Assembly (NCBI GenBank): GCA_016717325.1
Contig: JADKFV010000017.1
Span: 1,533 to 65,532, forward strand
DNA length: 64,000 nucleotides
From: Bacteroidota bacterium
Lineage (GTDB): Bacteria > Bacteroidota > Bacteroidia > AKYH767-A > OLB10
Direction of reading: 5' to 3'
The position numbers were made by a program, and so were the translations under genes. The notes under the pieces are model-generated. The model saw only the letters and a list, made by a program, of their open reading frames with translations, made no database searches and was not told the DNA's origin. Positions 3,621-63,838 of this stretch are shown here, in pieces; the first letter of the stretch is position 1; every line of letters begins with the position of its first letter.

Positions 3621-3800
3621 GCCAGCACTGGGGCTAAAAAAATATTTCGGCTAAAGCCAATACAAATTATTAAAACCGTCCGATAAATCGGACGGCAATG
3701 ATTTGCTTGCGCGAAAAACTTTGTGCTTTAGTGTCTTTGTGGCAAAAAAGTATTTGGCATCCGTTCTGGCATGGGTTGCTAAAAAGCATCTGTTCCAAAT
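3574..3800. repeat. Dispersed about 220-bp repeat, copy A. It starts with GAGATTGCTTCAGTCGTNCCTCCTTCGCAATGACG and contains the hairpin CCGTCCGATAAATCGGACGG.
   Basis: Near-identical to 6478-6700. The 35-mer head also occurs at 3113, 3287 and 3393. Confidence 0.8.
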
Positions 3801-3942: not shown

Positions 3943-5641
3943 ATGAGAAAATTATTTTGCTCCGTAGTGATGGTATTCACTTTTATTTATGCTGCAACAG
4001 CACAACAGATTCTAACATGTAAAGCCACGGTTGACAAAGCCACTGTATACCTTACAGGCGCTACACTCACAAGCACTGCCGACTTCAATTTGAAACAAGG
4101 CATAAACGAACTTGTATTCGAAAATATTTCTTCGGCACTCAACACACAATCGTTGCAGGCATCGGGCAAAGGAAACTTTGTAATAATGGATGTGAGGTAC
4201 AATGTAAAAATGAATGAGCAACCAACCGTAAAGCCCGATACAAAATTTGATAAAATAATAAATCAGCTCAACGATTCTATTACCGAAATGGAATTTGTAA
4301 TAGAAGAATTAACTGAACGCAACACCGCATTGCAAAGCGAAAAAAATATTTTGCTCACCAACAGATTAATGAAAGGCGAAACAAAACAAGACACGCTTGC
4401 ACTATTCACCGAAGCTATTGCGTTTTTACGTGCTCGATTAGAAAACATTACTGCAGAAACTTTTAAAGTAAAACGTGCATTGCAAAAAAACAATGTTGCG
4501 CTTGCAAATTTGCAACAGCGTTATCAGGAATTGATTGACGCTAAAAACAAAACCACTATTCCAAAAATATCAACTGCATCGGTATGCCAGGCAATAGTAA
4601 CTGTAATGGCCGAAACAGAATCTGCCGCAAAAGTATCGGTAAGTTATTATGTAAATGGTGCAGGCTGGAAACCAACTTATGATATACGTGCATCGGGAAC
4701 AAGCAATACTATTGGCATAACACACAAAGCACAATTGTACCAAAACACTGGTCTCGACTGGAACAATACTGCCATTACACTCGCTACTGCAACACCTAAT
4801 CAAGGCATTAACAAGCCACAACTTAATCCACAACTTATAGGTTACTTCATGGCAGTGATGCGCGAAAAAAGAAAAGCCTTAAATAATGAAACACTTGACG
4901 AAGCTACAATTACTGGCACTACAGCAATGGATGCTAAAAAGCCATCAATAAAGGACGATGCCGAAGACATGGCTTTATACACCGATATGGTTGAAAACCT
5001 TGTGCAAACTGAATATAACATAAAACTAAAATACAACATACCTGCCGATGGCAAAGAACACATGGTAGTTATACAAAACACAGAAGTGAAGGCCGATTAT
5101 AATTTCTCTGCAGTACCTAAACTTGATGCCAATGCATATTTACAAGCACGCATAACCGACTGGAGCGATTTGAATTTATTGCCCGGCATATCGCGTATAT
5201 TTTTCGACAATTCTTTTGTAGGCCAATCGGTAATTGATCCATACATCACAAACGACACCATGTTGCTAAGTTTGGGTAAAGACAAATCGATAATAATGCA
5301 ACGCAAAAAATTGAAAGATAAAACAAGACAAAAATTTTTTGGGCGAAGACAAAACAATTTCCTACTCGTTCGAAATAAGTTTAAAAAATACAAAATCGTT
5401 GCCGGTAAATATTACTGTCGAAGATCAGATTCCAATTTCCAATACAAAAGAAATAGAAGTGAAATTGATAGCTGGCAACAAAGCTAACTACAATGTAGAA
5501 ACCGGAAAACTTGAATGGGATTTACAATTGAAACCAGGCGAATCGAAAAAATTATTGGTTACCTACGAAGTAAAATTACCCAAGAATAAAGCCTGGCGGG
5601 GATGTAGTTTGAGGGAGCGTTGGGGAAGTTTTGAAAGTTGA
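3943..5641 (+). pseudogene. DUF4139 (mucoidy inhibitor MuiA-like, DUF4140 N-terminal) protein, frameshifted near 5335 at CAAAAATTTTTTGGG
   Basis: Signal peptide, then KATVDKATVYLTGATLTSTADFNLKQGINELVFENISSALNTQSLQASGKG typical of the DUF4140/DUF4139 family. The family C-terminus (ISYSFEISLKNTKSLPVNITVEDQIPIS..KLEWDLQLKPGESKKLLVTYEVKLPKNK) is in ORF 5339..5641, in another frame. Confidence 0.7.
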
Positions 5642-6477: not shown

Positions 6478-6700
6478 GAGATTGCTTCAGTCGTACCTCC
6501 TTCGCAATGACGAAGGAAAGAGTATTCGTTCTTGCATTCGTGGTAAAAAAATATTTCGGCTAAAGCCAATACAAATTATAAATACCGTCCGATAAATCGG
6601 ACGGCAATGAATTGCTTTCGCAAAAGCTTTGTGCTTTGGTCTCTTTGTAGCAAAAAATTATTCGGCATTCATTCATGCATTCGTGGCTAAAAAGTATTGG
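6478..6700. repeat. Dispersed about 220-bp repeat, copy B (partner of 3574-3800)
   Basis: Same 35-mer head, same CCGTCCGATAAATCGGACGG hairpin and same trailing sequence as copy A. The two copies sit in direct orientation and bracket 3943-6384. Confidence 0.8.
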
Positions 6701-8179: not shown

Positions 8180-9601
8180 TTACAAAGTTAGTTTTTGGCC
8201 GTTGTAAAATTCCAATACTTTGATTCGAAAAATCAAATCGAATTTTGCCTGCAACAAATCGGACTGTGCACGGGTAGCATTATTTTTGGCTGTGAGATAT
8301 TCGAGCGATGTGCCCATACCGGCATTAAATTTCTTTTCGGAATAGCCCGATGATAAAAGTGCAGCGCTGTATGCTTTTTGTGCTGCGGCATATTTCAATT
8401 GTGCCGACTTTGCATCGAGGTGTGCTTGTTGTATGGTTTTAAAAATTTGCTGTTTCGTATTTTGCAAATCGACTTTGGTACGTGCCATATTTATTTTAGC
8501 ACGACTGATATTGCTGTGTGTACTCCATGCATTGAATATTGGAATTTGCAAACTAAGTCCAATGCCTTTATTCAAATTTTCGTTTACTTGTGTGTTGAAT
8601 GGAGTTTCTTCAAATACGGTTTTAAAACTTGGAGACAAAACAGTATCGAATGCAGATGTAATTTGCCCATTGGGCGCAAAGCCTGTAAATTGAGGTGTTC
8701 CGGCCAATCGCTTTGCACCACTCGAATAACCCGAACTTACACTACCAAACGCAGTGAGGCGTGGTGAGTAACCTCCGCGTGCAATTGACAATGCCGTACC
8801 GGCACTTTGGGAGCGGATTTCTGCAGCTTTCACTTCGGGCATAGCTCTTAATGCATTTTCATATATTTGATAAGCAGTAAATCCAACAATGCTTTGGTCG
8901 GCAAGTTCAAGATTAGGGTCTTCTATATCGAAATTATCGGCACTATCGAGATTCATTATTTGCACCAATGTAAGTAGCGATTGCTTCACAGAGTTTGAAG
9001 CATTTATTTGTTGCAATTCTTCTGATGCAACTTGCGCTTCCAAATCCATGAGACTTCCTTCGGCCAACACGCCCGCCAGCACTTGTTTCTTTATCACATC
9101 GCGTTGTTTTTCTATCGACTCAATACGCAATTTGGCGGCCTTCAGTTGTTCTTTACTAAACAATACCTGCAAGTATGACGATGCCACACTCAACGAAATA
9201 TCGTTAACCACTTTTTCTAAATCGTGCTTGCCGGCCTGGTAATCGAGCTTGCTTTGCTTTACAGTATTCATTAGTTGAAACCCATCGAACAATACCACAT
9301 TCCCACTCAGCGAAAGTTGTGTATTCGAAATTTGCTGATTGGTAAATTGATACGTGTATGGGTCAACAGAGCGGCCAAAATTTATATTCTGACTTGCGCT
9401 CCCATTTACAGATGGCAGCAATGCTGCTTTATTTTGAATAAGCGTAACACGAACGCCTTGCCCGGCAAGAGCCGATTGCTGCACCAGCAAATTATTATTC
9501 ATAGCATATTCAACGCATTCTTTTAGTGACCAACGTTGTTGTGCCTCCATATTGAAATGAAGTAGAAGGCATAGTGCGAAAACAGAAAATGTTCTAAGCA
9601 T
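8180..9601 (-). CDS. TolC-family outer membrane efflux protein
   Basis: 473 aa. Signal peptide, SLKECVEYAMNNN start and two-repeat TolC architecture. Adjacent to the adaptor. Confidence 0.85.
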   Translation of the reverse strand: MLRTFSVFALCLLLHFNMEAQQRWSLKECVEYAMNNNLLVQQSALAGQGVRVTLIQNKAALLPSVNGSASQNINFGRSVDPYTYQFTNQQISNTQLSLSGNVVLFDGFQLMNTVKQSKLDYQAGKHDLEKVVNDISLSVASSYLQVLFSKEQLKAAKLRIESIEKQRDVIKKQVLAGVLAEGSLMDLEAQVASEELQQINASNSVKQSLLTLVQIMNLDSADNFDIEDPNLELADQSIVGFTAYQIYENALRAMPEVKAAEIRSQSAGTALSIARGGYSPRLTAFGSVSSGYSSGAKRLAGTPQFTGFAPNGQITSAFDTVLSPSFKTVFEETPFNTQVNENLNKGIGLSLQIPIFNAWSTHSNISRAKINMARTKVDLQNTKQQIFKTIQQAHLDAKSAQLKYAAAQKAYSAALLSSGYSEKKFNAGMGTSLEYLTAKNNATRAQSDLLQAKFDLIFRIKVLEFYNGQKLTL

Positions 9602-19235: not shown

Positions 19236-19690
19236 TCTGTCCTCGGTTGGCGTCCCCGCCACCCGCCTTGCTGCATACATTATTTACATATAAACCAAAA
19301 TCATATGCTGCATTTGAGACAATCGATTTATTATCAAATCGCATTCTAGTGTATTGCTAAAAATCCGAAATAAATCATAGCAAAATATAAAAATTGCTGT
19401 GAAATATTTTTCGAAATAAGCGGGTGGCGGGGACGCCAACCGAGGACAAAGAAATCATTCAAAGCAGAATATAAAAATTGCTGTTATATTTTTTTGCAAA
19501 ATATGCGGGTGGCGGGGACGCCAACCGAGGACAAAATCGGAAATCATTCATAGTAGAGTTTAAAAATTGTTTTGAAATATTTTTGAGATGTAAGCGATTG
19601 GCAGGGACGCCAACCGAGGACAAGGAATTGCTTTGTAATGTTTTGAGAAATAAACGGGTGGCTGCGAAGACAACCGAAGACAAGCAAAAA
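19236..19690. repeat. GC-rich tandem array: 4 direct copies of an about 85-bp unit containing GCGGGTGGCGGGGACGCCAACCGAGGACAA, plus one inverted copy at 19236-19268
   Basis: Core copies at about 19420, 19504, 19591 and 19655 (degenerate). The AT-rich parts between cores are also similar to each other, so this is not CRISPR. The cores are GC-rich inside an AT-rich genome. Confidence 0.8.
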
Positions 19691-19806: not shown

Positions 19807-22800
19807 ATGAGTTATAAGAAAATAAACAACATTGTTGGTTGGGTTGTATTTGCAATTGCCTCGTACGTATATCTAACTACTATGGAGCCTACGGGCAGCT
19901 TTTGGGATTGTGGCGAATTTATTGCCTGTTGCAATGGCTTACAGGTGGGTCATCCTCCCGGTGCGCCTATGTTTATGTTGATGGGCCGTATGTTTATTTT
20001 ATTTGCTGGCGAAAATGTAAAACAAATACCACTAGCTATAAATGCTTTGTCGGCAATATGTAGTGCGCTGTGTATATTATTTTTGTTTTGGAGCATTACA
20101 CACCTTGCACGCAAAATGGTAGTGAAGGGTAAAAACGAACCTAACATGGGCGATATAATTGCCATAATGGGAAGTGGTTTTGTAGGCGCTATTGCTTATA
20201 CTTTTACCGATTCGTTTTGGTTTTCGGCCGTGGAGGGCGAGGTGTATGCAACCTCTGCAATGTTTACCGCAGTAGTGTTTTGGGCCATGTTGAAATGGGA
20301 GGAAGTGGCCGATGAAAAGCACAATGCACGATGGATAATTTTTATCGCCTTTATGATGGGCCTTTCTATTGGTGTCCATTTACTCAACTTGCTTGCCATA
20401 CCAGCATTGGCGCTCATTTATTATTTTAAGCGTTACAAATTTACATGGGTAGGCTTTGTAGCTGCACTGGGAGTTTCTATTGCCATTTTAGGTTTTGTAC
20501 AAAAAGGCATCATATCCTATTTTATAAAAATTGGTGCACAGTTCGATTTAATTTTTGTAAATAGTTTTGGCTTACCATTTTGGTCGGGCTTTATGTTTTA
20601 CCTGCTTGTTACCCTTGGAATAATTGCTTATGCACTGTGGTACACTACGCGCAAAGGTAAAGTGGTATTGAATACTGCCTTGCTCGCTGTTACATTTATT
20701 CTTATAGGATACTCATCCTATTCTGTGATAGTTATACGCAGCACGGCCAATCCTCCATTGGATGAAAACGATCCGGAAAATGTATTTTCACTTTTAAATT
20801 ATTTGGGTCGCGAGCAATATGGCGACTTTCCGTTAGCATACGGGCAATATTATAATGCAAAAACGATAGACTCGGATTTTAAAGATATGCAGTATGTAAA
20901 AAAAGACGGTAAATATGTAGAAGTAGGTCGCAAGGAATCGCCTGTTTACGATCCGGCTTTTTGTGGTATCTTTCCACGTATGTGGAGCCCACAAGATAAT
21001 CATGCAAGTTTTTACAAAAACTATCATAAAGGCAATGCTGAAGAACGACCTACAAGTGGCGAAAATATTTCTTTCTTTATCGACTATCAGGTAATGCACA
21101 TGTACTTCCGTTATTTTATGTGGAATTTTGTTGGCCGCCAAAACGATATACAAAGCTATAGCGACAACATTACCAAAGGCAATTGGATTAGCGGTATTAC
21201 TCCAATAGATAATATGCGCCTTGGCCCGCAAGAAAAATTGCCGCAAAGCATGACTAATAATAAAGGGCGCAACAAATTTTATTTCTTGCCTTTAATTTTA
21301 GGATTGGTGGGCTTTGCATACCAGGTACAAAAAAACCGTAAAGATTTTGTCATTGTAGGCATGTTGTTTTTTATGACAGGAATGGCCATTGTACTGTATG
21401 TAAATCAACCACCCTATCAACCGCGCGAGCGTGATTATGCTTATGCAGGATCGTTCTATGCTTTTTCGATGTGGATAGGATTGGGTGTGTTGGCCATTTT
21501 CGATTTGTTGCGTAATAAGTTAAGCCTTCCTACTGCTGGTGCGGCCATTGCAGCAACGGTAGTTTCGTGTTCGGTACCATATGTATTGTGTGCTGATGGA
21601 TGGAACGATCACAACCGTGCATTACGTTATACATCGCGCGATTTTGCCACTAATTATCTTAACTCGTGTGCACCCAATGCCATCATATTTACCAATGGCG
21701 ATAACGATACTTTCCCATTGTGGTATGCACAACAGGTAGAAGGGGTAAGGCGCGATATACGGATTGTAAACCTTAGTTTATTAAATACAGACTGGTATGT
21801 AAACCAAATGAAACGTCAGGAATACAATTCGCCACCGGTGCCATTTACACTTACATACGATAAGTACATGCAAGGCACACGCGATTATGTTCCATTTGTA
21901 GAACAAAAAAGTTTGTCGGCAAATTACACCGAGTTGAAACAGGTGTTTAATTTTATGACAAGCGAAAATCCCGAAACCAAAGTGCAGGTGCGCGATGGAA
22001 AATACATCAACTATTTGCCCACAAAAAAATTGCGCATCACTGTTGACAAAGCTGCAGTAATAAAAAGCGGAACGGTAGATATAAAAGACACAGCAAAAAT
22101 TGTTGATTATATAGATTGGGATATAAATAAAAGTTATGTGATGAAGGCCGACCTTATGATGCTGGACTTACTTGCACACAACGATTGGAAACGCCCCGTG
22201 TACTATGCCGTTACAGTTGGTAGCGACAATTATATTGGCCTTGACGATTATTTCCAACTCGAAGGTTTGGCTTATCGTTTTGTGCCAATAAAAACAAAAA
22301 ATGCTGACCAGCAAACCGGCCGTGTAGCTACCGATCTTATGTACAAAAACATGATGGATAAATTTGTGTGGGGCAATATGAAAAACGAAAAAGTGTACCT
22401 CGATCAAAATAATCTTAACATGACCATGAACTTCCGCAATAATTTTGCGCGCTTGTCGGAGTCGTTATTAAACGAAGGTAAGTCGACCCAATCGGTTGCT
22501 GTGCTTGATAAGTGTAACGAAGAAATGCCCGACAAAACAGTGCCTTACAATATGATGATGTTGCGCATAACCGAAATGTATTACCGCAATGCCATGCAGG
22601 CTGCAACTTCTGTTGATTCAACAGGAAGGCCAATCATCGATCCCGAAAAAATGAGCCAATCGCAAAAAGGAATTTTAGAAAAAGGCAACTCTATTTTGCG
22701 CAGACTTGCGGTGATATACGAAGACGATTTGAATTACTATTACTCTTTACGCGGCACAAAATATTTTGCTTTTATTGAAAAGGATATGAACCAATCGATG

Positions 22801-22911
22801 GCCATAATGAACGAAATGGTGCGGTTGTCGAAACTTACAAATCAGCCGGCCATTATTAAAGAAATGGAAGATGCATATGGTAATGTAATGAAAAAATATC
22901 AGGGTAATTAA
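19807..22911 (+). CDS. DUF2723-domain giant membrane protein (putative glycosyltransferase, TMEM260-like)
   Basis: 1034 aa. N-terminal polytopic region with the SFWDCGEFIA motif and a large C-terminal soluble region. Typical Bacteroidota DUF2723 architecture. Confidence 0.75.
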   Translation: MSYKKINNIVGWVVFAIASYVYLTTMEPTGSFWDCGEFIACCNGLQVGHPPGAPMFMLMGRMFILFAGENVKQIPLAINALSAICSALCILFLFWSITHLARKMVVKGKNEPNMGDIIAIMGSGFVGAIAYTFTDSFWFSAVEGEVYATSAMFTAVVFWAMLKWEEVADEKHNARWIIFIAFMMGLSIGVHLLNLLAIPALALIYYFKRYKFTWVGFVAALGVSIAILGFVQKGIISYFIKIGAQFDLIFVNSFGLPFWSGFMFYLLVTLGIIAYALWYTTRKGKVVLNTALLAVTFILIGYSSYSVIVIRSTANPPLDENDPENVFSLLNYLGREQYGDFPLAYGQYYNAKTIDSDFKDMQYVKKDGKYVEVGRKESPVYDPAFCGIFPRMWSPQDNHASFYKNYHKGNAEERPTSGENISFFIDYQVMHMYFRYFMWNFVGRQNDIQSYSDNITKGNWISGITPIDNMRLGPQEKLPQSMTNNKGRNKFYFLPLILGLVGFAYQVQKNRKDFVIVGMLFFMTGMAIVLYVNQPPYQPRERDYAYAGSFYAFSMWIGLGVLAIFDLLRNKLSLPTAGAAIAATVVSCSVPYVLCADGWNDHNRALRYTSRDFATNYLNSCAPNAIIFTNGDNDTFPLWYAQQVEGVRRDIRIVNLSLLNTDWYVNQMKRQEYNSPPVPFTLTYDKYMQGTRDYVPFVEQKSLSANYTELKQVFNFMTSENPETKVQVRDGKYINYLPTKKLRITVDKAAVIKSGTVDIKDTAKIVDYIDWDINKSYVMKADLMMLDLLAHNDWKRPVYYAVTVGSDNYIGLDDYFQLEGLAYRFVPIKTKNADQQTGRVATDLMYKNMMDKFVWGNMKNEKVYLDQNNLNMTMNFRNNFARLSESLLNEGKSTQSVAVLDKCNEEMPDKTVPYNMMMLRITEMYYRNAMQAATSVDSTGRPIIDPEKMSQSQKGILEKGNSILRRLAVIYEDDLNYYYSLRGTKYFAFIEKDMNQSMAIMNEMVRLSKLTNQPAIIKEMEDAYGNVMKKYQGN

Positions 22912-54467: not shown

Positions 54468-54982
54468 ATTATCGATTCAGAAAAATTATTTCAATCCGAG
54501 TTTTGCTTTTACTAATGGAAGAATAACAAAGCAAAATTTAATATCCGCTTTACCATTTAATAAACACAACTGTCATAATAAAATTGATGGCTAAAATTAG
54601 TAGTGAAAAATTCAGAGCGCAAAAGTATTTTAAAATTATACTCCTTTTTGTTTTGTGCAGAAATAAAAAATATGGTTCATAACTATCATGAAATTTGGTT
54701 TGCTTTAACAAAATCTAATTTTAATATTTGACGTATCGAAAGCAGATAGTGCAACATGCCCCCTTCGAAAAAGTTTTTTTTGAAGACCATTATTTTCTTA
54801 TAAAAGTGTAACGCCCGTTACCCATGTTATTTGGCTTTGTTTGTTTGCGTTACCAATTTTGTTCTACAATGTTTTACTAAACAAATTAAAAACAACGATT
54901 ATGCAAAATTCAAAAACACACTCCGAAAAAAAATTCTGTCAAACAGAAAAAATCTCAAACCTTGTTGATTGTGGCGCGATTA

Positions 54983-57900
54983 ATGATTATAACGCGAGCT
55001 CCCCCCCCCCCCCCCGAAAGGAAAGATAAACTCAAAATAATAAACAAAATTCTGCTGGCATTTATTTTGTTTCTCACTTCTAATCTATCTTATTCAAATA
55101 CATGCTTTAATTCAATTGTAAAAATTGTTACCCCAGCTTGTACTTATGATACTTTAACTACAAATGATTCTATAGTATGGTTTAGTTTTATCGCAACAAC
55201 ACCCAATACTGCCATTGCCTTTTATAAAAACGCCAATTCAGGCACTCCAATTTTTGAACAGGTTGAAATTTACGATGGCACATGTAATACGCTCAATTTA
55301 ATTGATACAGCAGAAATATTAAGTGATACTTTTTGCTTTAGTAATCGAAATAACTATGTGATTGGAAGTACATATTACATTAAATTGAAACAGAAATGTA
55401 TTCAAAATCAAACATGTTTCATCAACGCTAGTTCTGTTTTTGTAAGCATATACCAAACAATACTATATAATCAAAGCGTGGATCCATGTAACTATGTCAT
55501 AAATCCTCAATTTGAAATGGGGCCAATACCGCTGCTATTAGACCGCATAGTAACTGCCTCTGGTTGGTTCCGTAATTTAATTGGCAGCACATTGCCTTGT
55601 AATGGTTACAGCCCAAACACTCCAGATTTACTTGATGTAAATTCACCAAATCCAATTGTTCGACCTAACACAAATCAATATGGGAATGGCATACCATTTA
55701 CGCCTCATAGTGGAAATAGAGTTGCAAATTATGGAACTGCTGAATCTTTTGTGGGCACTGTATTTCCAAACTTGCCTGTTGGCACATATACATTCAGCTT
55801 TTATGCAATTATACAAGGGCAATTTTGTAATAATCCATACCTCAATAATTCATGTGTTGTCAATATAATGAGTAACTGTGGCACTAAGCAAAATATTTTT
55901 AACCAAACTATTAATATGAGCAATGCTAACTGCAATACGTGGACTTTGTTTCAATCCAGTTTTCAAATTACAAATACGAGTTTGAATAGGTTGGAATTCA
56001 CTTGGGATAACTCTAATACAAATTTACCGCACAATGGGCTTTATATTGATGACGTCTCAATTGCTAGAAGCTGCAAAACAACTATTACCACGACACTGCC
56101 TTGCATTGGACAAGCTAACGGAACTGCTACTGCCACTTCCGATTGCCCTGTTATTGATTATTTATGGAGCAATGGACAAACAACTTCAACAGCTACTGGA
56201 CTCTCAGCTGGTACGTATACTGTAACAGTTACTGACGACAAAGGCTGCTCGAGAACATCATCAATTATTTTAACTGAAATTAATGGGTTCACATTGTCAA
56301 TTTTTAGTACGCCTAATTGCATTGGCGACAATACTCATACAGGCACTGCTATAGTAACTCCTAGTGTAATAGGTCAATATACTTATTTATGGAATAATGG
56401 GCAAGTAACCTCAGTCGCTACTGGTTTAATTGCTGGCACTTACACTGTGACAGTTACAAACGTTAATGGATGTACGAAAACAGCTACTGTTATTGTGGAT
56501 AACTCATACTCTTTTACTGTAACCACCACCACCACAGGTGACTGCACAGGCGAAGCAACAGGCACGGCAACAGCAATCGCAAACCAACCGGGGCCACTCA
56601 CTTATTTATGGAGCAACGGCCAAACCACTCAAACAGCCACAGGCCTGTTTGCAGGTACGTATACTGCAACAGTTACCGATGCGAATGGCTGCACAAATAG
56701 TGCATCGGCAACTATAGTTGATTTAAGCGAAAATGTACCAATAATAAGTGCCAGCAGTTTCACATCCTGCATAAAAGATTTAGCGCAAACTTTTAAGGAC
56801 ATTGATTTGACAATAGACAATTATGTAAACGACCCTGCATACATATACACGTGGAGCTTTGTGCCAACGGGCGCGCCTGCCGCTACCTTGGTTGGCAATG
56901 GTAGCACAGCCGTGCTGACTACGTATGGTATGGGTGGTACCGTAACCGTTCACCTCAGCGTTAATGGCTGTGATTTTTATACTAACTATTATATACAAGA
57001 TTGCTGCGAAGGTGTGCCATCGCAACCAAACAGCACTACATTGGTTGATATAGATGCCTCTGACCTTATTGCTATGTATGGCGGTAATCCTACTGTAACC
57101 ACAAATGATAATTTATATTTTAATGGCACACTTACAGTTAACGTTCCGTTTTTTGCATTTAGCAATTGCCAATTTTTAAATTTTGGCCCTGCCGCAAAAA
57201 TTGTTTGCTCACCAAACACCACTTTACAAATAGATGGTAGTCACCTGCAAGCATGTAATACTATGTGGTATGGCATAGAAATGGGGCATAGCTCAAGTAT
57301 CATATTGGAAAATAATATTATACAAGATGCGCAGTATGCAGTGAAGGCAACAGATAATTGCCAAACAACTTTGGTAAACAACGATATGAATGATAACTTT
57401 GTATCGTATTATGTAGCGCCAAACATAACTTCGCAAATGATAAACGGAGCCATACAAGAAAATCGTTTTTATACTGTAAACCAATTGGTGCAGCCTTACC
57501 TTGGCCAAACACCCGTAATACACACGCACAGCTTTGCAGGTATATGGATAAACGATGTTACAGCACTTACCATTGGCTCATACAATGCGGCTGCGTCAAA
57601 AAATATTTTCCGCAACCTCAACAATGGCATTATAAGCAACCGCACCAACCTTACTTCGCTGTATAATATTTTTGACGATATAAGTAGCAAAGGTGGCTAT
57701 AGTGGTCTCACAAATACTACACTATTTAACCACACCGGTACAGGCATTACCGCTTATGGTGGTATAGGTTACATAGCAGATATAGCGGGCGATGCCGGGC
57801 CGGGCAATGCTGTGGAGTATATCAATTGCTTTCGTGGTATATATGTAGATGGCTTGCAAGCAAAAGTGTACGACCACGAATTTACCACTACCAACACTAC

Positions 57901-59764
57901 AGGTATAAACCGTATAGGCATAGCAGTAACTAATATGAACCATACGCCAACACATATATTTAGAAATACCATACATGCAACGCAGGCAGGTATACGAGCC
58001 ACCGAAAATTATGCAAGCGTTTATATTTACGACAATACAATTACAATAGATAACCCTGCATATAATCAATTTTTTAGAACAGGAATTTCTATTGATAATT
58101 TTACCAATGCACTTGGTGCTGATATAGATGTGCACCACAACCACGTATACATGACCGATGCCCGCAGAGGGATATGGCTGCGCAATATAAAAGGGGCATG
58201 GGTGCATGAGAATGATGTATGGATGCAATATGCAAACACATACCACACAGGCGGTGTTTACGACTATGGCATACTTGCCGAAAATAGCCCAAGTGGCACA
58301 ATAGACTGCAACAGCGTAACCGGCAATGCCTTCCAAGGCGACCCGGGTGCGGCCCCACAAACATTTGCATTTGGCTTTAACCTAAGCACCGACAACATAG
58401 TAAGCTGCAACCACAGCGACAATACCGATGTAGGTTTTAACTTTACAGGTGCCTGCCAAAATACAGATTTTAAAGGGAACCAAATTGATAGGCATTGGGC
58501 GGGGTTGAGGTTGGCAAGTAGTGTGTTTGGTGTCCAGAATGATGCAGGGAATTTGTGGCATCTTAGGCATACATATCCGGCACTTGGAGCTAGGTTGGAT
58601 TTTAGTGCTCCACTCCCAAATGAAATACGTACTCCAGCAGTATTGCCCTACACACCGATTAATAATGGGGGATTTAATACTTGGTTCAAAGCTCCCAATG
58701 CTGCACCATATAGTTGTTCATCTTTATATTGCTCTGCACCATTCCGCATAGGTGGGGATAGCAGCGTTATAAATGAAGATGAATTGCGAGCAATTGAAGG
58801 TGATAGTGTTGTTACAGAATTTAATCCTCAAGTTAGTGACGATACGAAAAAACGATTGTACGAGAAACTACTTAGTAATCCAACTTTACAAAATACAAGC
58901 AGTGATATAACGCAGTACTTTGCTGAAGCACAAAATAATGACATTGGTACTGTAAATGCTGTAAAAAATAAAACTAGTGAAGTGGGTGAATTAATAAAGA
59001 GTAATGCCACTTTAATCAATCCATTAGCCAATGCTCAAAATGCGCTTTTGTTGCAGTTAAGAACAAATGATAGCATAATTAATACTACTACAGATAGCTT
59101 GCTGAAATTAATTTTAATTGAACAAAATAACATTCTTTCAAATGGACTTGACAGTTTAAAAGAGCAAATAGAAACTATATCCATTGGGGAACAAATAGTA
59201 GAAAATCAAAAGTATGACGAAGCAAAAACAATAAACAACAATATGATGGCACAAGAAGTTTTTGACTATAATACGAGTGTTATAACTGATATTTATTTAT
59301 CGAAAATTGCAAAAAATAATTTTCAATTAAGCACAGCACAGATTAATGAAGTAGTTAGCATTGCAAACATGTGTCCACTAATAGGTGGTCCTGCCGTGTA
59401 TTTGGCAAGGCCGATTGTAGAGCTATATGATGAAAACATTGTTTACAATGACCAAGCTGTATGCTTGAGCCAGGGCGTAAGTATGAAATTAGCAAATGGA
59501 AATGCTCCAACACAAGCAAATGAAAACACAGTGGTGCAAGTTTTTCCAATACCAAGTAAGGATGTTGTAAATTTTAATTTTGGCAACCTCCAATTTAATG
59601 GTCTGTTGATATTTGATAGCTATGGAAAACAAATTGAAGAAGTAAAATTAAATGTAAAGCACCAATACACTTTGCAAACAAATGTATTTGCAAACGGTAT
59701 ATATCGTTATAAATTAATGAACGATACGATTGAATTAACGGGTAAAATTGTAATTGTAAAATAA
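54983..59764 (+). CDS. Giant T9SS-secreted adhesin-like protein: SprB-type repeats, right-handed parallel beta-helix region, type-A CTD
   Basis: About 1594 aa from ATG 54983. Four repeats of the form C.G.ANGTATA..YLWSNGQTT..TGL.AGTYTVTVTD. Beta-helix-like NN.I..N blocks. CTD ..NGIYRYKLMNDTIELTGKIVIVK. The signal region contains PPPPP, encoded by C15. Confidence 0.75.
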   Translation: MIITRAPPPPPERKDKLKIINKILLAFILFLTSNLSYSNTCFNSIVKIVTPACTYDTLTTNDSIVWFSFIATTPNTAIAFYKNANSGTPIFEQVEIYDGTCNTLNLIDTAEILSDTFCFSNRNNYVIGSTYYIKLKQKCIQNQTCFINASSVFVSIYQTILYNQSVDPCNYVINPQFEMGPIPLLLDRIVTASGWFRNLIGSTLPCNGYSPNTPDLLDVNSPNPIVRPNTNQYGNGIPFTPHSGNRVANYGTAESFVGTVFPNLPVGTYTFSFYAIIQGQFCNNPYLNNSCVVNIMSNCGTKQNIFNQTINMSNANCNTWTLFQSSFQITNTSLNRLEFTWDNSNTNLPHNGLYIDDVSIARSCKTTITTTLPCIGQANGTATATSDCPVIDYLWSNGQTTSTATGLSAGTYTVTVTDDKGCSRTSSIILTEINGFTLSIFSTPNCIGDNTHTGTAIVTPSVIGQYTYLWNNGQVTSVATGLIAGTYTVTVTNVNGCTKTATVIVDNSYSFTVTTTTTGDCTGEATGTATAIANQPGPLTYLWSNGQTTQTATGLFAGTYTATVTDANGCTNSASATIVDLSENVPIISASSFTSCIKDLAQTFKDIDLTIDNYVNDPAYIYTWSFVPTGAPAATLVGNGSTAVLTTYGMGGTVTVHLSVNGCDFYTNYYIQDCCEGVPSQPNSTTLVDIDASDLIAMYGGNPTVTTNDNLYFNGTLTVNVPFFAFSNCQFLNFGPAAKIVCSPNTTLQIDGSHLQACNTMWYGIEMGHSSSIILENNIIQDAQYAVKATDNCQTTLVNNDMNDNFVSYYVAPNITSQMINGAIQENRFYTVNQLVQPYLGQTPVIHTHSFAGIWINDVTALTIGSYNAAASKNIFRNLNNGIISNRTNLTSLYNIFDDISSKGGYSGLTNTTLFNHTGTGITAYGGIGYIADIAGDAGPGNAVEYINCFRGIYVDGLQAKVYDHEFTTTNTTGINRIGIAVTNMNHTPTHIFRNTIHATQAGIRATENYASVYIYDNTITIDNPAYNQFFRTGISIDNFTNALGADIDVHHNHVYMTDARRGIWLRNIKGAWVHENDVWMQYANTYHTGGVYDYGILAENSPSGTIDCNSVTGNAFQGDPGAAPQTFAFGFNLSTDNIVSCNHSDNTDVGFNFTGACQNTDFKGNQIDRHWAGLRLASSVFGVQNDAGNLWHLRHTYPALGARLDFSAPLPNEIRTPAVLPYTPINNGGFNTWFKAPNAAPYSCSSLYCSAPFRIGGDSSVINEDELRAIEGDSVVTEFNPQVSDDTKKRLYEKLLSNPTLQNTSSDITQYFAEAQNNDIGTVNAVKNKTSEVGELIKSNATLINPLANAQNALLLQLRTNDSIINTTTDSLLKLILIEQNNILSNGLDSLKEQIETISIGEQIVENQKYDEAKTINNNMMAQEVFDYNTSVITDIYLSKIAKNNFQLSTAQINEVVSIANMCPLIGGPAVYLARPIVELYDENIVYNDQAVCLSQGVSMKLANGNAPTQANENTVVQVFPIPSKDVVNFNFGNLQFNGLLIFDSYGKQIEEVKLNVKHQYTLQTNVFANGIYRYKLMNDTIELTGKIVIVK
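55001..55015 (+). repeat. C15 homopolymeric tract inside the 5-prime coding region (signal-peptide n-region) of the giant T9SS gene
   Basis: Seen directly: GAGCT C15 GAAAGG. It encodes PPPPP in the current frame. Confidence 0.9.
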
Positions 59765-59817: not shown

Positions 59818-61314
59818 ATGAAAAAAAATATTTTGATTTTATTGTTTTGTACTTGTTATACAACAATGTTTGCGCAAAAATACATGAATAATCTTGCTTT
59901 TAATGGAGAATATTTTTTATCTAATGACTCTTTTAATTTTATTTTAAGCAACTATAAGTTGAATACTCCTGTATATCAATATCTTGATTCTTCCGATTTG
60001 TGGATGGGTAACCATTCTGCATTAATAGCTGACAGCACTGGGCAGTTAATTTTCTATACAAATGGATGCTCAGTAGGGAATAAAAATTTTGAAATGATAC
60101 CAGGTACTGATACCTTGGAATATACAAGCATAGTTATCACTTGCCCCTATGGCCAACCAAACTTGAATGGGGCATTTTTTCTACCCTCACTCACAAATCC
60201 AAATGAAATTCTTTTGTTTCATAAAGACGATCAGTTTACTACCAATTGGAATTGGATTTTTGCCACAAGTTACAATGCTTGGTTTACGGTGCTTGACAAA
60301 ACTATGAATAATGGCTTAGGCGGCTTGGTATCGCGTAATAATATTTTGTATAATACTGAAACATGCAGAGATGGATTTCAAGCAGTGAAACATGCTAATG
60401 GCAGGGATTATTGGATTGTGATGCAAGATTTTGATACCAGTACTTTTGTTACTTTTCTCTACACGCCTACCGGTTTTTCTGTGCCCTTTTTTCAAAATAT
60501 GAATATCCCTCTTTATCGTGGGGGTACGCCTAATGCTATATTTAATAGACAAGGCACAAAATATGCAACCACCGCTTGGAATAATAATTTAATGCTATTT
60601 GACTTTGACAGATGTACCGGGCAGTTCAAATATAATAATCAGGTTGATACTACTTGGCAATATTTAGGTTTTTTCTTTTGCTTTTCGGCAAAAGGCAACA
60701 AAATATATCGAATGGATAACAGCGATAAAATTTACCAATACGATACTGCCGATGTTGATTTTAATATTTCGCGCGATACGGTTGCTATATACGATGGATT
60801 CTTTGATGGTGATTCCACAAAATTCGTTACAATGTTTTTAGCTGCCGATGATAAAATATACATAAATTCAGCTATTGGCTATCAACATGTGATTAACAAA
60901 CCTGATTTGACTGGCATTTCATGTAATATTTTGCAGCACAGCATTAAACACCCGGCATCGGTTGGTAATGCCTTCCCCAACTACATCAACTACGATTTAG
61001 GGCCGCTTCTGGGTAGCCCATGTGATACGCTTTCTATCCTCACCCCGGCCCTCTCCAAAGGAGAGCGTGTAATGCAATGCTTTCCTAATCCGGCAACAAA
61101 TGAAGTAAACATAAAAATAAACAATGTGCCGCTTGGTAATTATACACTTAGTATATACACACCGTTAGCCAATGAGGTAATGCACATAGAAGGCAAAAGC
61201 ACGGTAAAAGATTTTACAAAAACATTACGTGTTCAGAGCCTTGCAAGTGGTTTTTATTTTGTAAAGTTGCAGGTGGAGGAAATGGAGTGGTATGGGAGGT
61301 TTGTGAGGGAGTAG
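59818..61314 (+). CDS. T9SS type-A CTD secreted protein, paralog P1
   Basis: 498 aa. Signal peptide. CTD CFPNPATNEVNIKINNVPLGNYTLSIY..FYFVKL. Paralogous along its whole length to 62336..63838. Confidence 0.7.
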   Translation: MKKNILILLFCTCYTTMFAQKYMNNLAFNGEYFLSNDSFNFILSNYKLNTPVYQYLDSSDLWMGNHSALIADSTGQLIFYTNGCSVGNKNFEMIPGTDTLEYTSIVITCPYGQPNLNGAFFLPSLTNPNEILLFHKDDQFTTNWNWIFATSYNAWFTVLDKTMNNGLGGLVSRNNILYNTETCRDGFQAVKHANGRDYWIVMQDFDTSTFVTFLYTPTGFSVPFFQNMNIPLYRGGTPNAIFNRQGTKYATTAWNNNLMLFDFDRCTGQFKYNNQVDTTWQYLGFFFCFSAKGNKIYRMDNSDKIYQYDTADVDFNISRDTVAIYDGFFDGDSTKFVTMFLAADDKIYINSAIGYQHVINKPDLTGISCNILQHSIKHPASVGNAFPNYINYDLGPLLGSPCDTLSILTPALSKGERVMQCFPNPATNEVNIKINNVPLGNYTLSIYTPLANEVMHIEGKSTVKDFTKTLRVQSLASGFYFVKLQVEEMEWYGRFVRE

Positions 61315-61349
61315 CCCCTAAATCCCCCGCTGGGGGACTTGAACACCCC

Positions 61350-61880
61350 CAACCCCCGCTGGGGGCTTACCAAAGCTCGGATGGCATATTGTGTGTTTAT
61401 CTTATTTAGTTGCAAAAAAAATGGTATCTCATGGATAAATTGTATTTTGAAAGTTTGTATAAAGGCGCAAAGCCAATTCAATTTGAATTTGCACAACAGA
61501 TGCGCAAAGAGCCTACACAGGCAGAATCAATTTTATGGACATATTTATCCGGCAAGCAAATGCAAGGTTTGAAATTTAGAAGGCAACATCCATTAGACAA
61601 TTTTATTTTAGATTTTTATTGTCATGAAATAAAATTGAGTATCGAATTGGATGGGAAAATACATCAGAATGAATTGCAAGCAACTTATGATAAAGAACGA
61701 ACCAAGTGCTTACAAGATAAGGGCATTAACGAACTCCGATTTAAAAATGAAACAATCATTAATCGAATTACTGATGCACTCAATGAAATTGAAAAAACAA
61801 TAAGACAAATAAAACGAAAGCAATATGATACCAAAAATCCAGCATAGCAAAGACAAGCCCCCAGCGGGGGTTGGGGGTGT
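61350..61880. mobile_element. Mini-element: DUF559 endonuclease-like gene flanked by perfect 20-bp GC-rich terminal inverted repeats (CCCCCAACCCCCGCTGGGGG on the left, CCCCCAGCGGGGGTTGGGGG on the right)
   Basis: The left repeat at about 61350-61375 and the right repeat at about 61856-61880 are exact reverse complements. An extra CCCCCGCTGGGGG hairpin lies at 61333. Inserted between two paralogous genes. Confidence 0.6.
61410..61847 (+). CDS. DUF559 domain protein (Vsr/restriction-endonuclease-like fold)
   Basis: 145 aa. ESILW..LKFRRQHPLDNFILDFYCHEIKLSIELDGKIH..YDKERTKCLQDKGINELRFKN matches the DUF559 signature (FRRQ, DFYC, IELDG.H, D.ER, LRF.N). Confidence 0.75.
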   Translation: MQKKWYLMDKLYFESLYKGAKPIQFEFAQQMRKEPTQAESILWTYLSGKQMQGLKFRRQHPLDNFILDFYCHEIKLSIELDGKIHQNELQATYDKERTKCLQDKGINELRFKNETIINRITDALNEIEKTIRQIKRKQYDTKNPA

Positions 61881-61888
61881 ATTATTAC

Positions 61889-62280
61889 CGCAATGCCCCC
61901 TGATAGGTGGCTCAGCTGTGTATTTGGCAAGACCAATTGTAGAAATGTTTGATGACAATATCATGTACAATGATGCGGCAATTTGTTTAAGTCAAGGGGT
62001 TATTATGAAAATGTCAAATCAAGTAACAGCGGATGAAACTATTGCCACCGTAAAAGTATATCCAAACCCGGCTAAAGATGAAATCAATTTTGAATTTGGG
62101 AACGGCACATATTTCAAACTAATTATTTATGATAGTTTTGGTAAAGAAATACGTTTGGAATTAATGCAAAGCAAAATTGAATACAAATTATCAACCACAG
62201 ATATTGCAAATGGCATTTATCGTTATAAGTTAATTGGTGTGCCACATGAAATATCCGGAAAAATTGTAATATTAAAGTAA
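61889..62280 (+). pseudogene. Orphan C-terminal fragment (last about 130 aa including the T9SS CTD) homologous to the C-terminus of the giant 54983..59764 protein
   Basis: CPLIGGSAVYLARPIVEMFDDNIMYNDAAICLSQGV..NGIYRYKLIGVPHEISGKIVILK aligns with the giant's ..NMCPLIGGPAVYLARPIVELYDENIVYNDQAVCLSQGV..NGIYRYKLMNDTIELTGKIVIVK. Homology begins right after the DUF559 element's right repeat. Confidence 0.6.
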
Positions 62281-62335: not shown

Positions 62336-63838
62336 ATGAAAAGTTTAATAATTTTAATTTTCACTTTTTGTACCCATGCATGTTTTTCGCAGAAGTATTT
62401 AAACAACTTAGCCTTCTTTGGGTATAACTATGGTGGAAATGACTCTAACTTTGTTCTTATTGATTATAAAAATGGCATTCCAATTAATCAATACATTGAT
62501 TCATCCGCTTTGAAAATGAATGCTACTCTTGCATTAATTGCCGATAGTATCGGGAATTTACTTTTTTACACAAACGGAACAAGAATAGGAAATAAAAATT
62601 TAGAAGTGATACCAAATGGAGATACTTTGGATGCGAGTCCTTGCGGATTAAATTGGGGGCAACAAGGCTTTGGGTTAAATATGCCAAATGGTGCTTTCTT
62701 CTTGCCCTCCTTATCAAATCCAAATGAAGTTTTGCTTTTTCATTTAGATTGTGATTACATTATTTTGTTTAATATGGCACTTGGCTTAAGTCATAATTTT
62801 TGGTACACAGTACTTGATACTACAATGAACAATGGACTTGGGGGTGTGGTAACAAGAAACAATGTATTATACAATGGTGAGCTGGGTTGGGGCGGTTTGC
62901 AAGCCGTAAAACATTCAAATGGTAAAGATTATTGGTTAGTGGCACAAGATTTAGACACCTCTTATTTTATTACTTGGTTATATTCTGATGCAGGATTTGC
63001 TGGTCCTTTTTTTCAAAATTTGAATATACCACTTTGGCGAATAACAACAGTTAATTCAATGTTTAATCGCCAGGGAAATAAATATGCATCTGTTGCTTGG
63101 AATCAGAATTTAATGTTGTTTGATTTTGATAGATGTACCGGGCAATTTAAATTTAACAATCAAGAGGATACAGCTTGGTTGTATTTAGGCAATTTGTTCT
63201 GCTTTTCATCAAATGGAAATAAAATTTATCGAACAGATGGCACAAATATTTTTCAATACGACACAGCCGATGTTGACTTTAATATTTCGCGCGATACGGT
63301 TGCTATATATGACGGATATTTTGATGTTGACTCGACAAAATTTGGCACCATGTTTTTAGCTGGGGATGATAAAATTTATATTAATGCATCGGGAACAAAA
63401 TATCAACATGTAATAAATAAGCCTGATTTGTCAGGTATTGCATGTAATTTAACGCAACATTCCATTAAGCATCCGCTTTATATTGGTGCTTCCTTCCCCA
63501 ACTACATCAACTACGATTTAGGGCCGCTTGTGGGGAGTCCGTGTGATACTTTATCTGTCCTCACCAATACCCCCAACCCCCTACAAGGGGGCTTAATGCA
63601 ATGCTTTCCAAACCCGGCAACAAATGAAGTAAACATAAAAATAAACAATGTGCCGCTTGGTAATTATGTACTTAGTATATACTCACCGTTAGCCTATGAG
63701 GTAATGCACATAGAAAGCAAAAACACTGCGAAAGATTTTACAAAAACATTACGCGTTCAGAGCCTTGCAAGTGGTTTTTATTTTGTAAAGTTGCAGGTGG
63801 AGGGGATGGAGTGGTATGGGCGGTTTGTGAGGGATTAG
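62336..63838 (+). CDS. T9SS type-A CTD secreted protein, paralog P2
   Basis: 500 aa. Collinear with P1. Identical CTD core. Differs by a short GC-rich palindromic segment at the domain junction. Confidence 0.7.
   Translation: MKSLIILIFTFCTHACFSQKYLNNLAFFGYNYGGNDSNFVLIDYKNGIPINQYIDSSALKMNATLALIADSIGNLLFYTNGTRIGNKNLEVIPNGDTLDASPCGLNWGQQGFGLNMPNGAFFLPSLSNPNEVLLFHLDCDYIILFNMALGLSHNFWYTVLDTTMNNGLGGVVTRNNVLYNGELGWGGLQAVKHSNGKDYWLVAQDLDTSYFITWLYSDAGFAGPFFQNLNIPLWRITTVNSMFNRQGNKYASVAWNQNLMLFDFDRCTGQFKFNNQEDTAWLYLGNLFCFSSNGNKIYRTDGTNIFQYDTADVDFNISRDTVAIYDGYFDVDSTKFGTMFLAGDDKIYINASGTKYQHVINKPDLSGIACNLTQHSIKHPLYIGASFPNYINYDLGPLVGSPCDTLSVLTNTPNPLQGGLMQCFPNPATNEVNIKINNVPLGNYVLSIYSPLAYEVMHIESKNTAKDFTKTLRVQSLASGFYFVKLQVEGMEWYGRFVRD

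Follow-up and report, generated by a model that had tools for sequence, protein, structure and literature searches.

Within a stretch of 64,000 nucleotides from a Bacteroidota bacterium (contig JADKFV010000017.1; 37% G+C), in the following called the window, positions 61343-61880 form a compact module in which a DUF559 nuclease gene lies between inverted three-block repeats. The module is located in an array of genes encoding cargo proteins of the type IX secretion system (T9SS). The enrichment of such repeats beside DUF559 genes was shown to be strong, positional and present across phyla, including the ycjD gene of Escherichia coli. Judged by their block structure, the arms of the module are repeats of the kind named BoxC, PIT (potential intrastrand triplex) or TMECO. 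As the best explanation we favour, at a probability of roughly 0.55, a repeat-bracketed DUF559 module that takes part in a widespread partnership of gene and repeat, with the nuclease acting at its own repeats and with homing-like copying. The sequence comparisons support the view that the module behaves as a discrete, self-contained, selfish homing-like unit. The partnership of DUF559 and three-block repeat is apparently undescribed, and its layout parallels that of a RAYT gene flanked by REP repeats.

In the proposed mechanism, the DUF559 nuclease would recognise or cut DNA at or near its own repeats, whether this is double-stranded or a folded single strand. Repair of the break from a paralogous copy would then copy the module and co-convert neighbouring sequence. 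Such copying would be homing-like and dependent on recombination, and not a cut-and-paste transposition. In this lineage the module may have landed first between a T9SS gene of ~495 codons and the next small gene for a protein with a C-terminal sorting domain (CTD), deleting the 5′ part of the latter. Afterwards it may have spread to, and been homogenised among, equivalent junctions, and solo repeats within the paralogs could represent boundaries of conversion tracts.

Structure of the module and its nuclease gene

A three-block repeat, as searched here, consists of a C-run, a loop, a complementary G-run, a spacer of 2-3 nt and a second G-run. The intact DUF559 gene is bracketed by perfect inverted arms of 26 nt (ACACCCCCAACCCCCGCTGGGGGCTT; 61343-61368 and 61855-61880), which contain the 20-mer CCCCCAACCCCCGCTGGGGG at 61346-61365 on the plus strand and its exact reverse complement at 61858-61877. 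Elsewhere in the 64 kb this 20-mer has no further match with up to three mismatches, and none was obtained in 100 shuffles. Complementarity of the arms extends at 78% to 49 nt, giving a left terminal inverted repeat (arm B, plus strand) at 61343-61391 and a right one (minus strand) at 61832-61880. The three-block motifs of the left arm (61344-61365, minus strand) and of the right arm (61858-61879, plus strand) both read CCCCC-AGC-GGGGG-TT-GGGGG. Each arm thereby includes a C5-GCT-G5 hairpin, and a third copy of this hairpin is found at 61324-61336. The latter is part of an extra motif, arm A, on the minus strand at 61314-61337 (plus strand GCCCCTAAATCCCCC-GCT-GGGGGA), which overlaps the stop codon of the preceding 498-aa gene by a single base. 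Arms of the A type also occur beside DUF559 genes of other Bacteroidota and of Picosynechococcus PCC 7002.

Two further motifs on the minus strand lie in frame inside paralogous T9SS genes. The one at 61041-61065 (CTCTCC-TTT-GGAGAG-GGCC-GGGGTG on the minus strand) is located in the 498-aa gene directly before the T9SS sorting domain and resembles TMECO type B. The other, at 63569-63591 (CCCCC-AA-CCCCC-TACAA-GGGGG on the plus strand), occupies the same linker position in the 500-aa paralog. With these, the three-block finder detected exactly five copies in the window, all of them between 61041 and 63591 (2.6 kb).

The DUF559 gene (61431-61847, plus strand) comprises 138 codons from an ATG, and an alternative TTG start at 61410 extends the open reading frame (ORF) to 145 aa (61410-61847). 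The ATG at 61431 is the likely start, as the resulting protein agrees with the closest homologue, P0001, in length and in its first residues. The product matches Pfam DUF559 (PF04480) with an E-value of 2.9e-31 and 108 bits, against a gathering cut-off of 20.6, over profile positions 5-108 of 109, and is predicted to be a Vsr-like PD-(D/E)XK nuclease. The residues D61, E72, D74, H78, D87 and R90, including the predicted catalytic acidic and histidine residues, are invariant across 26 sequences. A preliminary description of this DNA had named the inverted GC-rich repeats, the hairpin within each of them, a 145-aa DUF559 ORF and its position between two paralogs. All of this stands, except that the perfect arms are longer than the exact 20-mer pair, the hairpin has a third copy and the protein is probably shorter.

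The protein is under purifying selection: nonsynonymous and synonymous divergence from a related copy (L002) are dN 0.196 and dS 1.40 (dN/dS 0.14), and the ~495-aa proteins from the same two loci are only about 30% identical. No record was found for the exact protein sequence, and a scan of the contigs of species-representative genomes revealed no match above 51% identity. With 69.3 bits against a cut-off of 218 in the NCBIfam equivalog model NF007294, it is a relative of YcjD and not an equivalog. The closest solved structure is that of a Neisseria gonorrhoeae protein (PDB 3hrl; E 1.8e-18, or 1e-31 with a profile), followed by the homing endonuclease I-Bth0305I (PDB 3r3p; profile E 1.6e-4), an intron-encoded enzyme of the Vsr-like EDxHD group. 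The DUF559 family has been classed together with Vsr, and DUF559-type domains function as intein homing endonucleases. With I-Bth0305I our protein shares the nuclease superfamily and the E, D, H and D residues. Identity gradients resembling co-conversion and a presence/absence pattern, as known from homing, are likewise found for the DUF559 module. However, I-Bth0305I is encoded within a group I intron of a phage gene, whereas the DUF559 gene is free-standing with terminal repeats of its own, and the module appears to have deleted part of the gene which it entered.

The gene could also encode a solitary restriction or defence nuclease, methyl-directed or engaged in Vsr-like repair, that has nothing to do with the repeats. 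This is supported by weak PADLOC matches, one to a type II methyl-directed restriction enzyme and one to DpdF, and by a Caulobacter DUF559 protein whose Vsr-like role is tied to a cytosine methyltransferase. However, with 21 and 18 bits the PADLOC matches are marginal, and the neighbouring genes, which all encode T9SS cargo, lack a methyltransferase domain, including the cytosine methyltransferase expected beside a Vsr-type repair enzyme. We consider a defence function quite improbable. A small chance is given to a role at the RNA level, where the arms would be 5′ and 3′ mRNA hairpins, acting as stabilisers, as terminators or as a panhandle limiting the translation of a potentially toxic nuclease. 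Hairpins are indeed present within 100 nt of both gene ends, and in a transcript the two arms could base-pair. However, the Rfam search gave no match at and around the module, no T-run follows the hairpins, and the folding energy is only modestly better than that of shuffled sequences (z -1.1 to -2.2). Moreover, the same repeats occur far from DUF559 genes, as doublets and inside coding sequence, and PIT elements were reported to have neither promoter nor terminator activity (PMC4666352).

Association of three-block repeats with DUF559 genes

The generality of the pairing was analysed in 80 species-representative genomes, being the best matches to this short DUF559 subfamily, with each locus taken from a different assembly. 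The sample includes Bacteroidota, Chloroflexi, Patescibacteria, Cyanobacteria, a Methylococcaceae, Kapabacteria and Calditrichaceae. A three-block motif was found at most 200 nt from the DUF559 gene in 66 of the 80 loci, and on both sides in 42. The two 200-nt bins adjoining the gene contain 76 and 87 motifs, compared to 1-7 per bin elsewhere, which is about 25 times the background of the same loci. Perfect GC-rich hairpins behave similarly, with 32 and 41 in the 100 nt on either side and 2-11 per bin otherwise. Motif density amounts to 0.51 per kb in DUF559 loci versus 0.034 per kb in T9SS loci without DUF559, and a flanking inverted repeat scoring at least 14 was detected for 47 of 96 DUF559 genes.

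The second G block faces outward in about two thirds of the adjacent motifs. An insertion of the gene into the middle of an inverted doublet of the E. coli type was considered and dismissed as a misfit with the favoured outward position of the third block, although a minority of arms face inward. Across genera, arms of two subtypes are found repeatedly (ACCCCTAAA-TCCCC..GGGGA-CTTT and ACCCCCCAA-CCCCC..GGGGG-CTT), and the window has both. Additional copies and inverted doublets of the same arms were observed elsewhere in five loci (L021, L032, L054, L072 and L088). The stem type of the arms tracks the relatedness of the DUF559 proteins, agreeing in 62 of 66 nearest neighbours where 33 were expected (0 of 2000 permutations), a relation confounded by the relatedness of the hosts. 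Among the hairpins, stem and loop lengths vary too much for a fair alignment, and a preselection of perfect hairpins for covariation statistics would be circular.

An example from a well-studied genome is ycjD, the sole annotated DUF559 gene in the stretch of E. coli K-12 examined. The repeat CCCTCGCCCCTCTGGGGAGAGGGTTAGGGTGAGGGG lies 168 nt downstream in the orientation of ycjD and is identical to TMECO no. 9 of Holder et al. 2015 (PMC4666352). A rough estimate for such proximity by chance is ~0.002, based on 23 copies in 4.64 Mb. All 5426 E. coli genomes contain matches to a 57-nt stretch over this repeat, and their median number is 18 per genome. Full-length ycjD is present in 3375 of the 5426, and in the others the eefRABCD efflux operon replaces it; a published study inferred at least two independent ycjD/eefRABCD replacements. 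In the fabI-sapF interval (L187 and L188), ycjD with TMECO no. 9 and eefRABCD were seen as alternative occupants. YcjD and the gonococcal protein of structure 3HRL are thus both DUF559 family members whose genes adjoin three-block repeats. In contrast to the module, ycjD has one repeat on one side only, and the N. gonorrhoeae gene is flanked by direct repeats of ~110 bp, each containing a three-block motif.

Extrachromosomal examples were obtained from cyanobacteria. On plasmid pAQ6 of Picosynechococcus PCC 7002, a DUF559 gene lies amid dense clusters of both arm subtypes. A plasmid of Synechocystis sp. B12 (L190, 1360-2054) carries a repeat-flanked DUF559 gene between an N-terminal fragment of a DUF1156 gene and a hypothetical ORF, and this may represent an insertion into a coding gene. 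Carriage of DUF559 was found in 36 of 72,556 plasmids and 2 of 50,697 phages; since it is that rare, these are not the usual vehicles. Two further observations concern the location of DUF559 genes. One homologue (P0064, loci L100-L106) is located between trpB and trpA, which are normally adjacent. Many other DUF559 matches, such as L096-L099, were found on contigs that frequently are very short or stop directly before the gene, which is consistent with assembly breaks at repeats.

Holder et al. (PMC4666352) described the repeat with types A and B and with inverted A+B doublets in more than 260 genomes. They reported triplex formation in vitro and an association with rearrangements, and found no transposase, integrase or common flanking gene. 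The five copies in the window fit this description by a C-rich block, a loop, a complementary G-rich block, 2-3 nt and a second G-rich block. Two recurrent and often paired subtypes, the occurrence in multiple copies and the link to local rearrangement are further common features. However, the E. coli consensus (CCCTCNCCC-N3-6-GGGNGAGGG-N3-GGGNGAGGG) is not matched by the arms in the window, which have plain C5/G5 blocks, and only the copy at 61041-61065 approaches type B. In addition, two copies in the window lie in frame within genes, whereas E. coli copies were reported as always intergenic, and the repeats bracket a nuclease gene, whereas no enzyme was named by Holder et al. We found no literature linking DUF559 to repeats, though an earlier description elsewhere is possible. 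No papers joining "intrastrand triplex" and "ycjD" appeared in the literature searched, and no further work on PIT/BoxC repeats beyond Holder et al. surfaced.

The REP-RAYT system, including REPINs, offers the analogy mentioned above. In both cases a single, mostly vertically inherited enzyme gene is accompanied by inverted GC-rich hairpin repeats, which are also present elsewhere as singlets and doublets, and target-site duplications are lacking. The differences are that RAYT is an HUH tyrosine transposase, whereas the protein described here belongs to the PD-(D/E)XK nuclease family and has no HUH domain. Furthermore, a G-run tag is found in place of GTAG/CGTC heads, and within the 64 kb of the window the repeats are local and not dispersed. 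Tentatively, with somewhat less than even confidence, we suggest that DUF559 proteins including YcjD could be the enzymes that create, maintain or mobilise BoxC/PIT repeats, as a second REP-RAYT-like symbiosis built on a PD-(D/E)XK nuclease. In-frame repeats might then serve as break points for the swapping of modules such as T9SS sorting domains.

Since the 1990s, E. coli has been known to carry BoxC/PIT/TMECO repeats. They are present in hundreds of genomes and are linked to genome instability, but for about 30 years their origin and spread stayed unexplained and without a partner enzyme. DUF559 in turn is a very large family without an assigned function, in spite of a solved structure and an E. 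coli member. The physical link across phyla gives a testable function to both. If the suggestion is true, a second and mechanistically different repeat family would live with a dedicated nuclease. Locally, the array of surface-protein genes would be an example of gene truncation by such a module and of conversion tracts delimited by it.

Copies of the module and the possible limits of conversion

Homologues of the DUF559 gene occupy the same junction in further loci, L001 with 96% protein identity and L002-L015 with 70-74%. In all of these the junction lies after the stop codon of a T9SS gene of the ~495-aa (P495) family and before the CTD fragment, and in the relatives examined the module always follows a P495-family stop codon. 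Since this junction is shared by lineages whose DUF559 genes differ at a dS of 1.3-1.8, the insertion is not recent. Two module copies each were found in L002, within one array, and in L008. Both arms of L002 read ACACCCC-AAA-CCCC-TTAA-GGGG-CTT, that is C4-TTAA-G4 compared to C5-GCT-G5 in the window. The arms of L008 keep separate stems, CCTCC/GGAGG on the left and CCCC/GGGG on the right. The arms are preserved as structure and not as sequence, and they co-vary between relatives.

The two DUF559 copies of L002 are identical at 396 of 396 nt, while the adjoining paralogs share 54% protein identity (dS 1.47). The identical tract begins ~330 bp inside the upstream gene, in the sorting domain, and ends at the DUF559 stop codon, to the right of which identity decays to 0.8-0.9 over the right arm and the CTD fragment. 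A copy in another assembly with a different neighbourhood (L003) is 99.2% identical with the same tract limits. It keeps 14 nt of the usual right CTD flank and then continues into unrelated DNA. Between the window and L001, identity is ~98% from just after the in-ORF repeat to the end of the right arm. This tract ends at GGGGGTGTATTA (~61884), a few bases past the arm, and beyond it, where L001 has a different right flank, identity is ~72%. The CTD fragment of L001 is 76% identical to the giant protein of the window versus 60% to the window's own fragment.

Within the window, identity between the two paralogs is 45-75% across their bodies and 90-97% from the in-ORF repeat to the stop codon. 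The homogenised 3′ end of the 498-aa gene, coding for the sorting domain, covers 61066-61313 (plus strand; 0.90-0.97 identity to paralog 2 versus 0.45-0.75 elsewhere). The repeat at 61041-61065 is the left edge both of this homogenised stretch and of the stretch with ~98% identity to L001. Its hairpin differs from that of L001 at 13 of 21 positions with the pairing kept, suggesting that in-ORF repeats are replaced rapidly yet remain hairpins. A repeat-directed nuclease combined with repair from paralogs would lead to just such identical copies in diverged surroundings with a sharp right boundary at the end of the arm. It would also account for the missing target duplications, for the flank remnants that travel with copies and for the confinement of the module to homologous junctions.

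Derivatives of the module were detected as well. L002 contains an ORF-less mini-element of ~165 bp at 8426-8578, in which both subterminal sequences are kept. Its interpretation as a virgin target site was rejected, because subterminal sequence of the two ends is still present, and with it the final bases of the DUF559 ORF. A second ORF-less candidate of ~200 bp at 11219-11419 of L002, after the last ~495-aa gene, was recognised by its inverted motif pair alone. In L003, a solo right end with the CTD fragment still attached is located at 3950-4015.

Such short derivatives, together with terminal inverted repeats of ~49 nt, are features shared with miniature inverted-repeat transposable elements (MITEs) and related transposons. 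One could thus think of a cut-and-paste element with its transposase elsewhere and DUF559 as cargo. However, neither the module in the window nor any of 22 further strong cases (23 in all) revealed a target-site duplication, which makes classical transposition unlikely, and neither a DDE transposase nor any other transposase gene lies nearby. Unlike such elements, the module spreads only between homologous junctions, and the same cargo is accompanied by the same arm type across phyla. Finally, carried flank bits such as the 14 nt of CTD flank in L003 fit recombination and not precise transposition. A transposon is for these reasons very improbable. The preliminary description had taken the module for a small selfish element, either homing-like or transposition-like, and had proposed to look for target-site duplications. 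The discrete unit with marks of homing is retained here, and the transposition-like variant is given up.

Of all explanations considered we give the least credit to an invertible switch, in which the DUF559 segment would undergo programmed inversion. "DUF559 domain-containing protein" was reported as enriched among predicted inversion targets with an odds ratio of 14.3 (PMC9881135). However, that predictor is itself built on inverted repeats, so the enrichment is to be expected from the arms. The orientation of DUF559 relative to its flanks is identical in 15 of 15 related loci, and no recombinase gene is present near the module. Apparent inversions in L080, L089 and L048 turned out to be swaps of the flanks with gene orientation kept. 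In the corresponding comparisons (L022 with L080, L019 with L089 and L044 with L048), the genes flanking the module are exchanged or shifted in unchanged orientation, and the module is located at the rearrangement break points.

The readings as RNA element, transposon, inversion switch or defence gene all fit less well, and the main rival is the plain conversion of a passenger. Here, DUF559 would be an ordinary host gene within the tandem unit, for example a repair nuclease, which is homogenised by RecA-mediated conversion alone, and the repeats would be unrelated to it, being recombination-prone structures or protein-binding sites. This fits the local pattern. The sorting-domain segment is homogenised even in the second paralog, which no DUF559 gene follows, DUF559 is syntenic within genera, and Holder et al. 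tie the repeats to local rearrangement without any enzyme. It does not fit the pairing across phyla: the ~25-fold enrichment of the same repeat type around DUF559 in unrelated contexts, the tracking of DUF559 relatedness by arm type and the ORF-less derivatives with two arms are left unexplained. We therefore regard a passive passenger as unlikely, though not negligible.

Several points weigh against the favoured reading of a nuclease that acts at its own repeats. Homogenisation of the module could result from ordinary RecA-mediated conversion among the tandem paralogs, with the nuclease playing no part. Not only is DUF559 syntenic within genera, it is also apparently single-copy in most genomes, so that any mobility must be slow. 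All five repeat copies of the window are confined to the DUF559 locus and none is dispersed over the 64 kb. About one third of the adjacent motifs face the opposite way, and the flanking repeats of N. gonorrhoeae are direct and not inverted. The motif finder was made by ourselves, with the positional control within the same loci as sole guard against effects of composition, and the figures for generality hold for this short DUF559 subfamily. A presence/absence pattern with co-conversion of flanks, as typical for homing genes, was found, with the caveat that the element-free arrays come from distant relatives only.

The T9SS array and other features of the window

On the plus strand, the module is preceded by a gene for a 1600-aa T9SS cargo protein (54962-59764) and by the 498-aa cargo gene of the P495 family (paralog 1, 59818-61314). 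It is followed by a small 5′-truncated T9SS gene with a Por_Secre_tail domain (61825-62280) and by the 500-aa cargo gene (paralog 2, 62336-63838), after which there is no module. The two paralogs share 69% protein identity. The ORF at 61825-62280 begins within the 3′ end of DUF559 and reads across the right arm. Its homology to the C-terminus of the 1600-aa protein (55% identity over 129 aa) starts at ~61888 (QCPLIGG), and the last ~130 aa of the giant protein are the full-length counterpart of the truncated small gene.

Arrays without the module were obtained from metagenomes. A search with the single 498-aa protein found nothing, whereas an alignment-based profile of the ~495-aa family yielded 80 metagenomic loci, none of which (0 of 80) carries a DUF559 homologue. 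Tandem units of a CTD protein and a ~495-aa protein are frequent in these loci (L125, L128, L136, L147, L163, L179 and L180). In several of them the CTD unit is complete: it has ~200 aa, a start and a signal peptide of its own, and a conserved segment with ...IANQCP... at its end. In the lineage of the window, the DUF559 module replaces all of the small gene upstream of (S)IA(N/M)QCP. Since its upstream part is replaced, the "orphan CTD fragment" of the preliminary description, correctly related to the giant protein, is rather a small gene that has lost its start and signal peptide. The comparison with loci lacking the element, which had been suggested there, also bears on the idea that the element rearranged or built the tandem T9SS locus. 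That idea is not upheld: the tandem architecture is older than the module, and a role of the latter as generator of the tandem duplication was rejected because the DUF559-less arrays share the tandem units.

The arrays, present in many uncultured Bacteroidota including the seven metagenomic loci listed above, can be described as a tandem two-gene cassette, in which a small or giant protein with ...IANQCP... and a T9SS sorting domain is followed by a ~495-aa T9SS protein. The start of the small gene sometimes overlaps the preceding stop codon. The layout resembles that of polymorphic surface or toxin loci, in which alternative C-terminal cassettes are arrayed. Fifteen consecutive C (~55001-55015) coincide with the very start of the 1600-aa gene or directly precede it. 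Read from its TTG, the ORF has ...APPPPPERK... ahead of a segment resembling a signal peptide, and the run is a candidate tract for phase variation by slipped-strand mispairing.

Further repeats and one structured RNA, of the Flavo-1 type, were noticed elsewhere in the window; the RNA and the 37% G+C accord with an origin in Bacteroidota. At 19241-19274 and 19400-19690 there are four to five units in tandem (~61-91 nt), which all terminate in GCGGGTGGCGGGGACGCCAACCGAGGACAA, the later ones being degenerate. They are intergenic, before an ORF at 19807-22911, with one inverted copy ~150 nt upstream, and belong to a family distinct from the DUF559 arms. The hairpin CCGTCCG-ATAAAT-CGGACGG occurs twice, at 3676-3695 and 6585-6604, 2.9 kb apart and with conserved flanks (tacaaattat..a / caatga.ttgct). 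The sole Rfam match in the window is a Flavo-1 RNA (RF01705) at 848-937 on the minus strand, with 74 bits.

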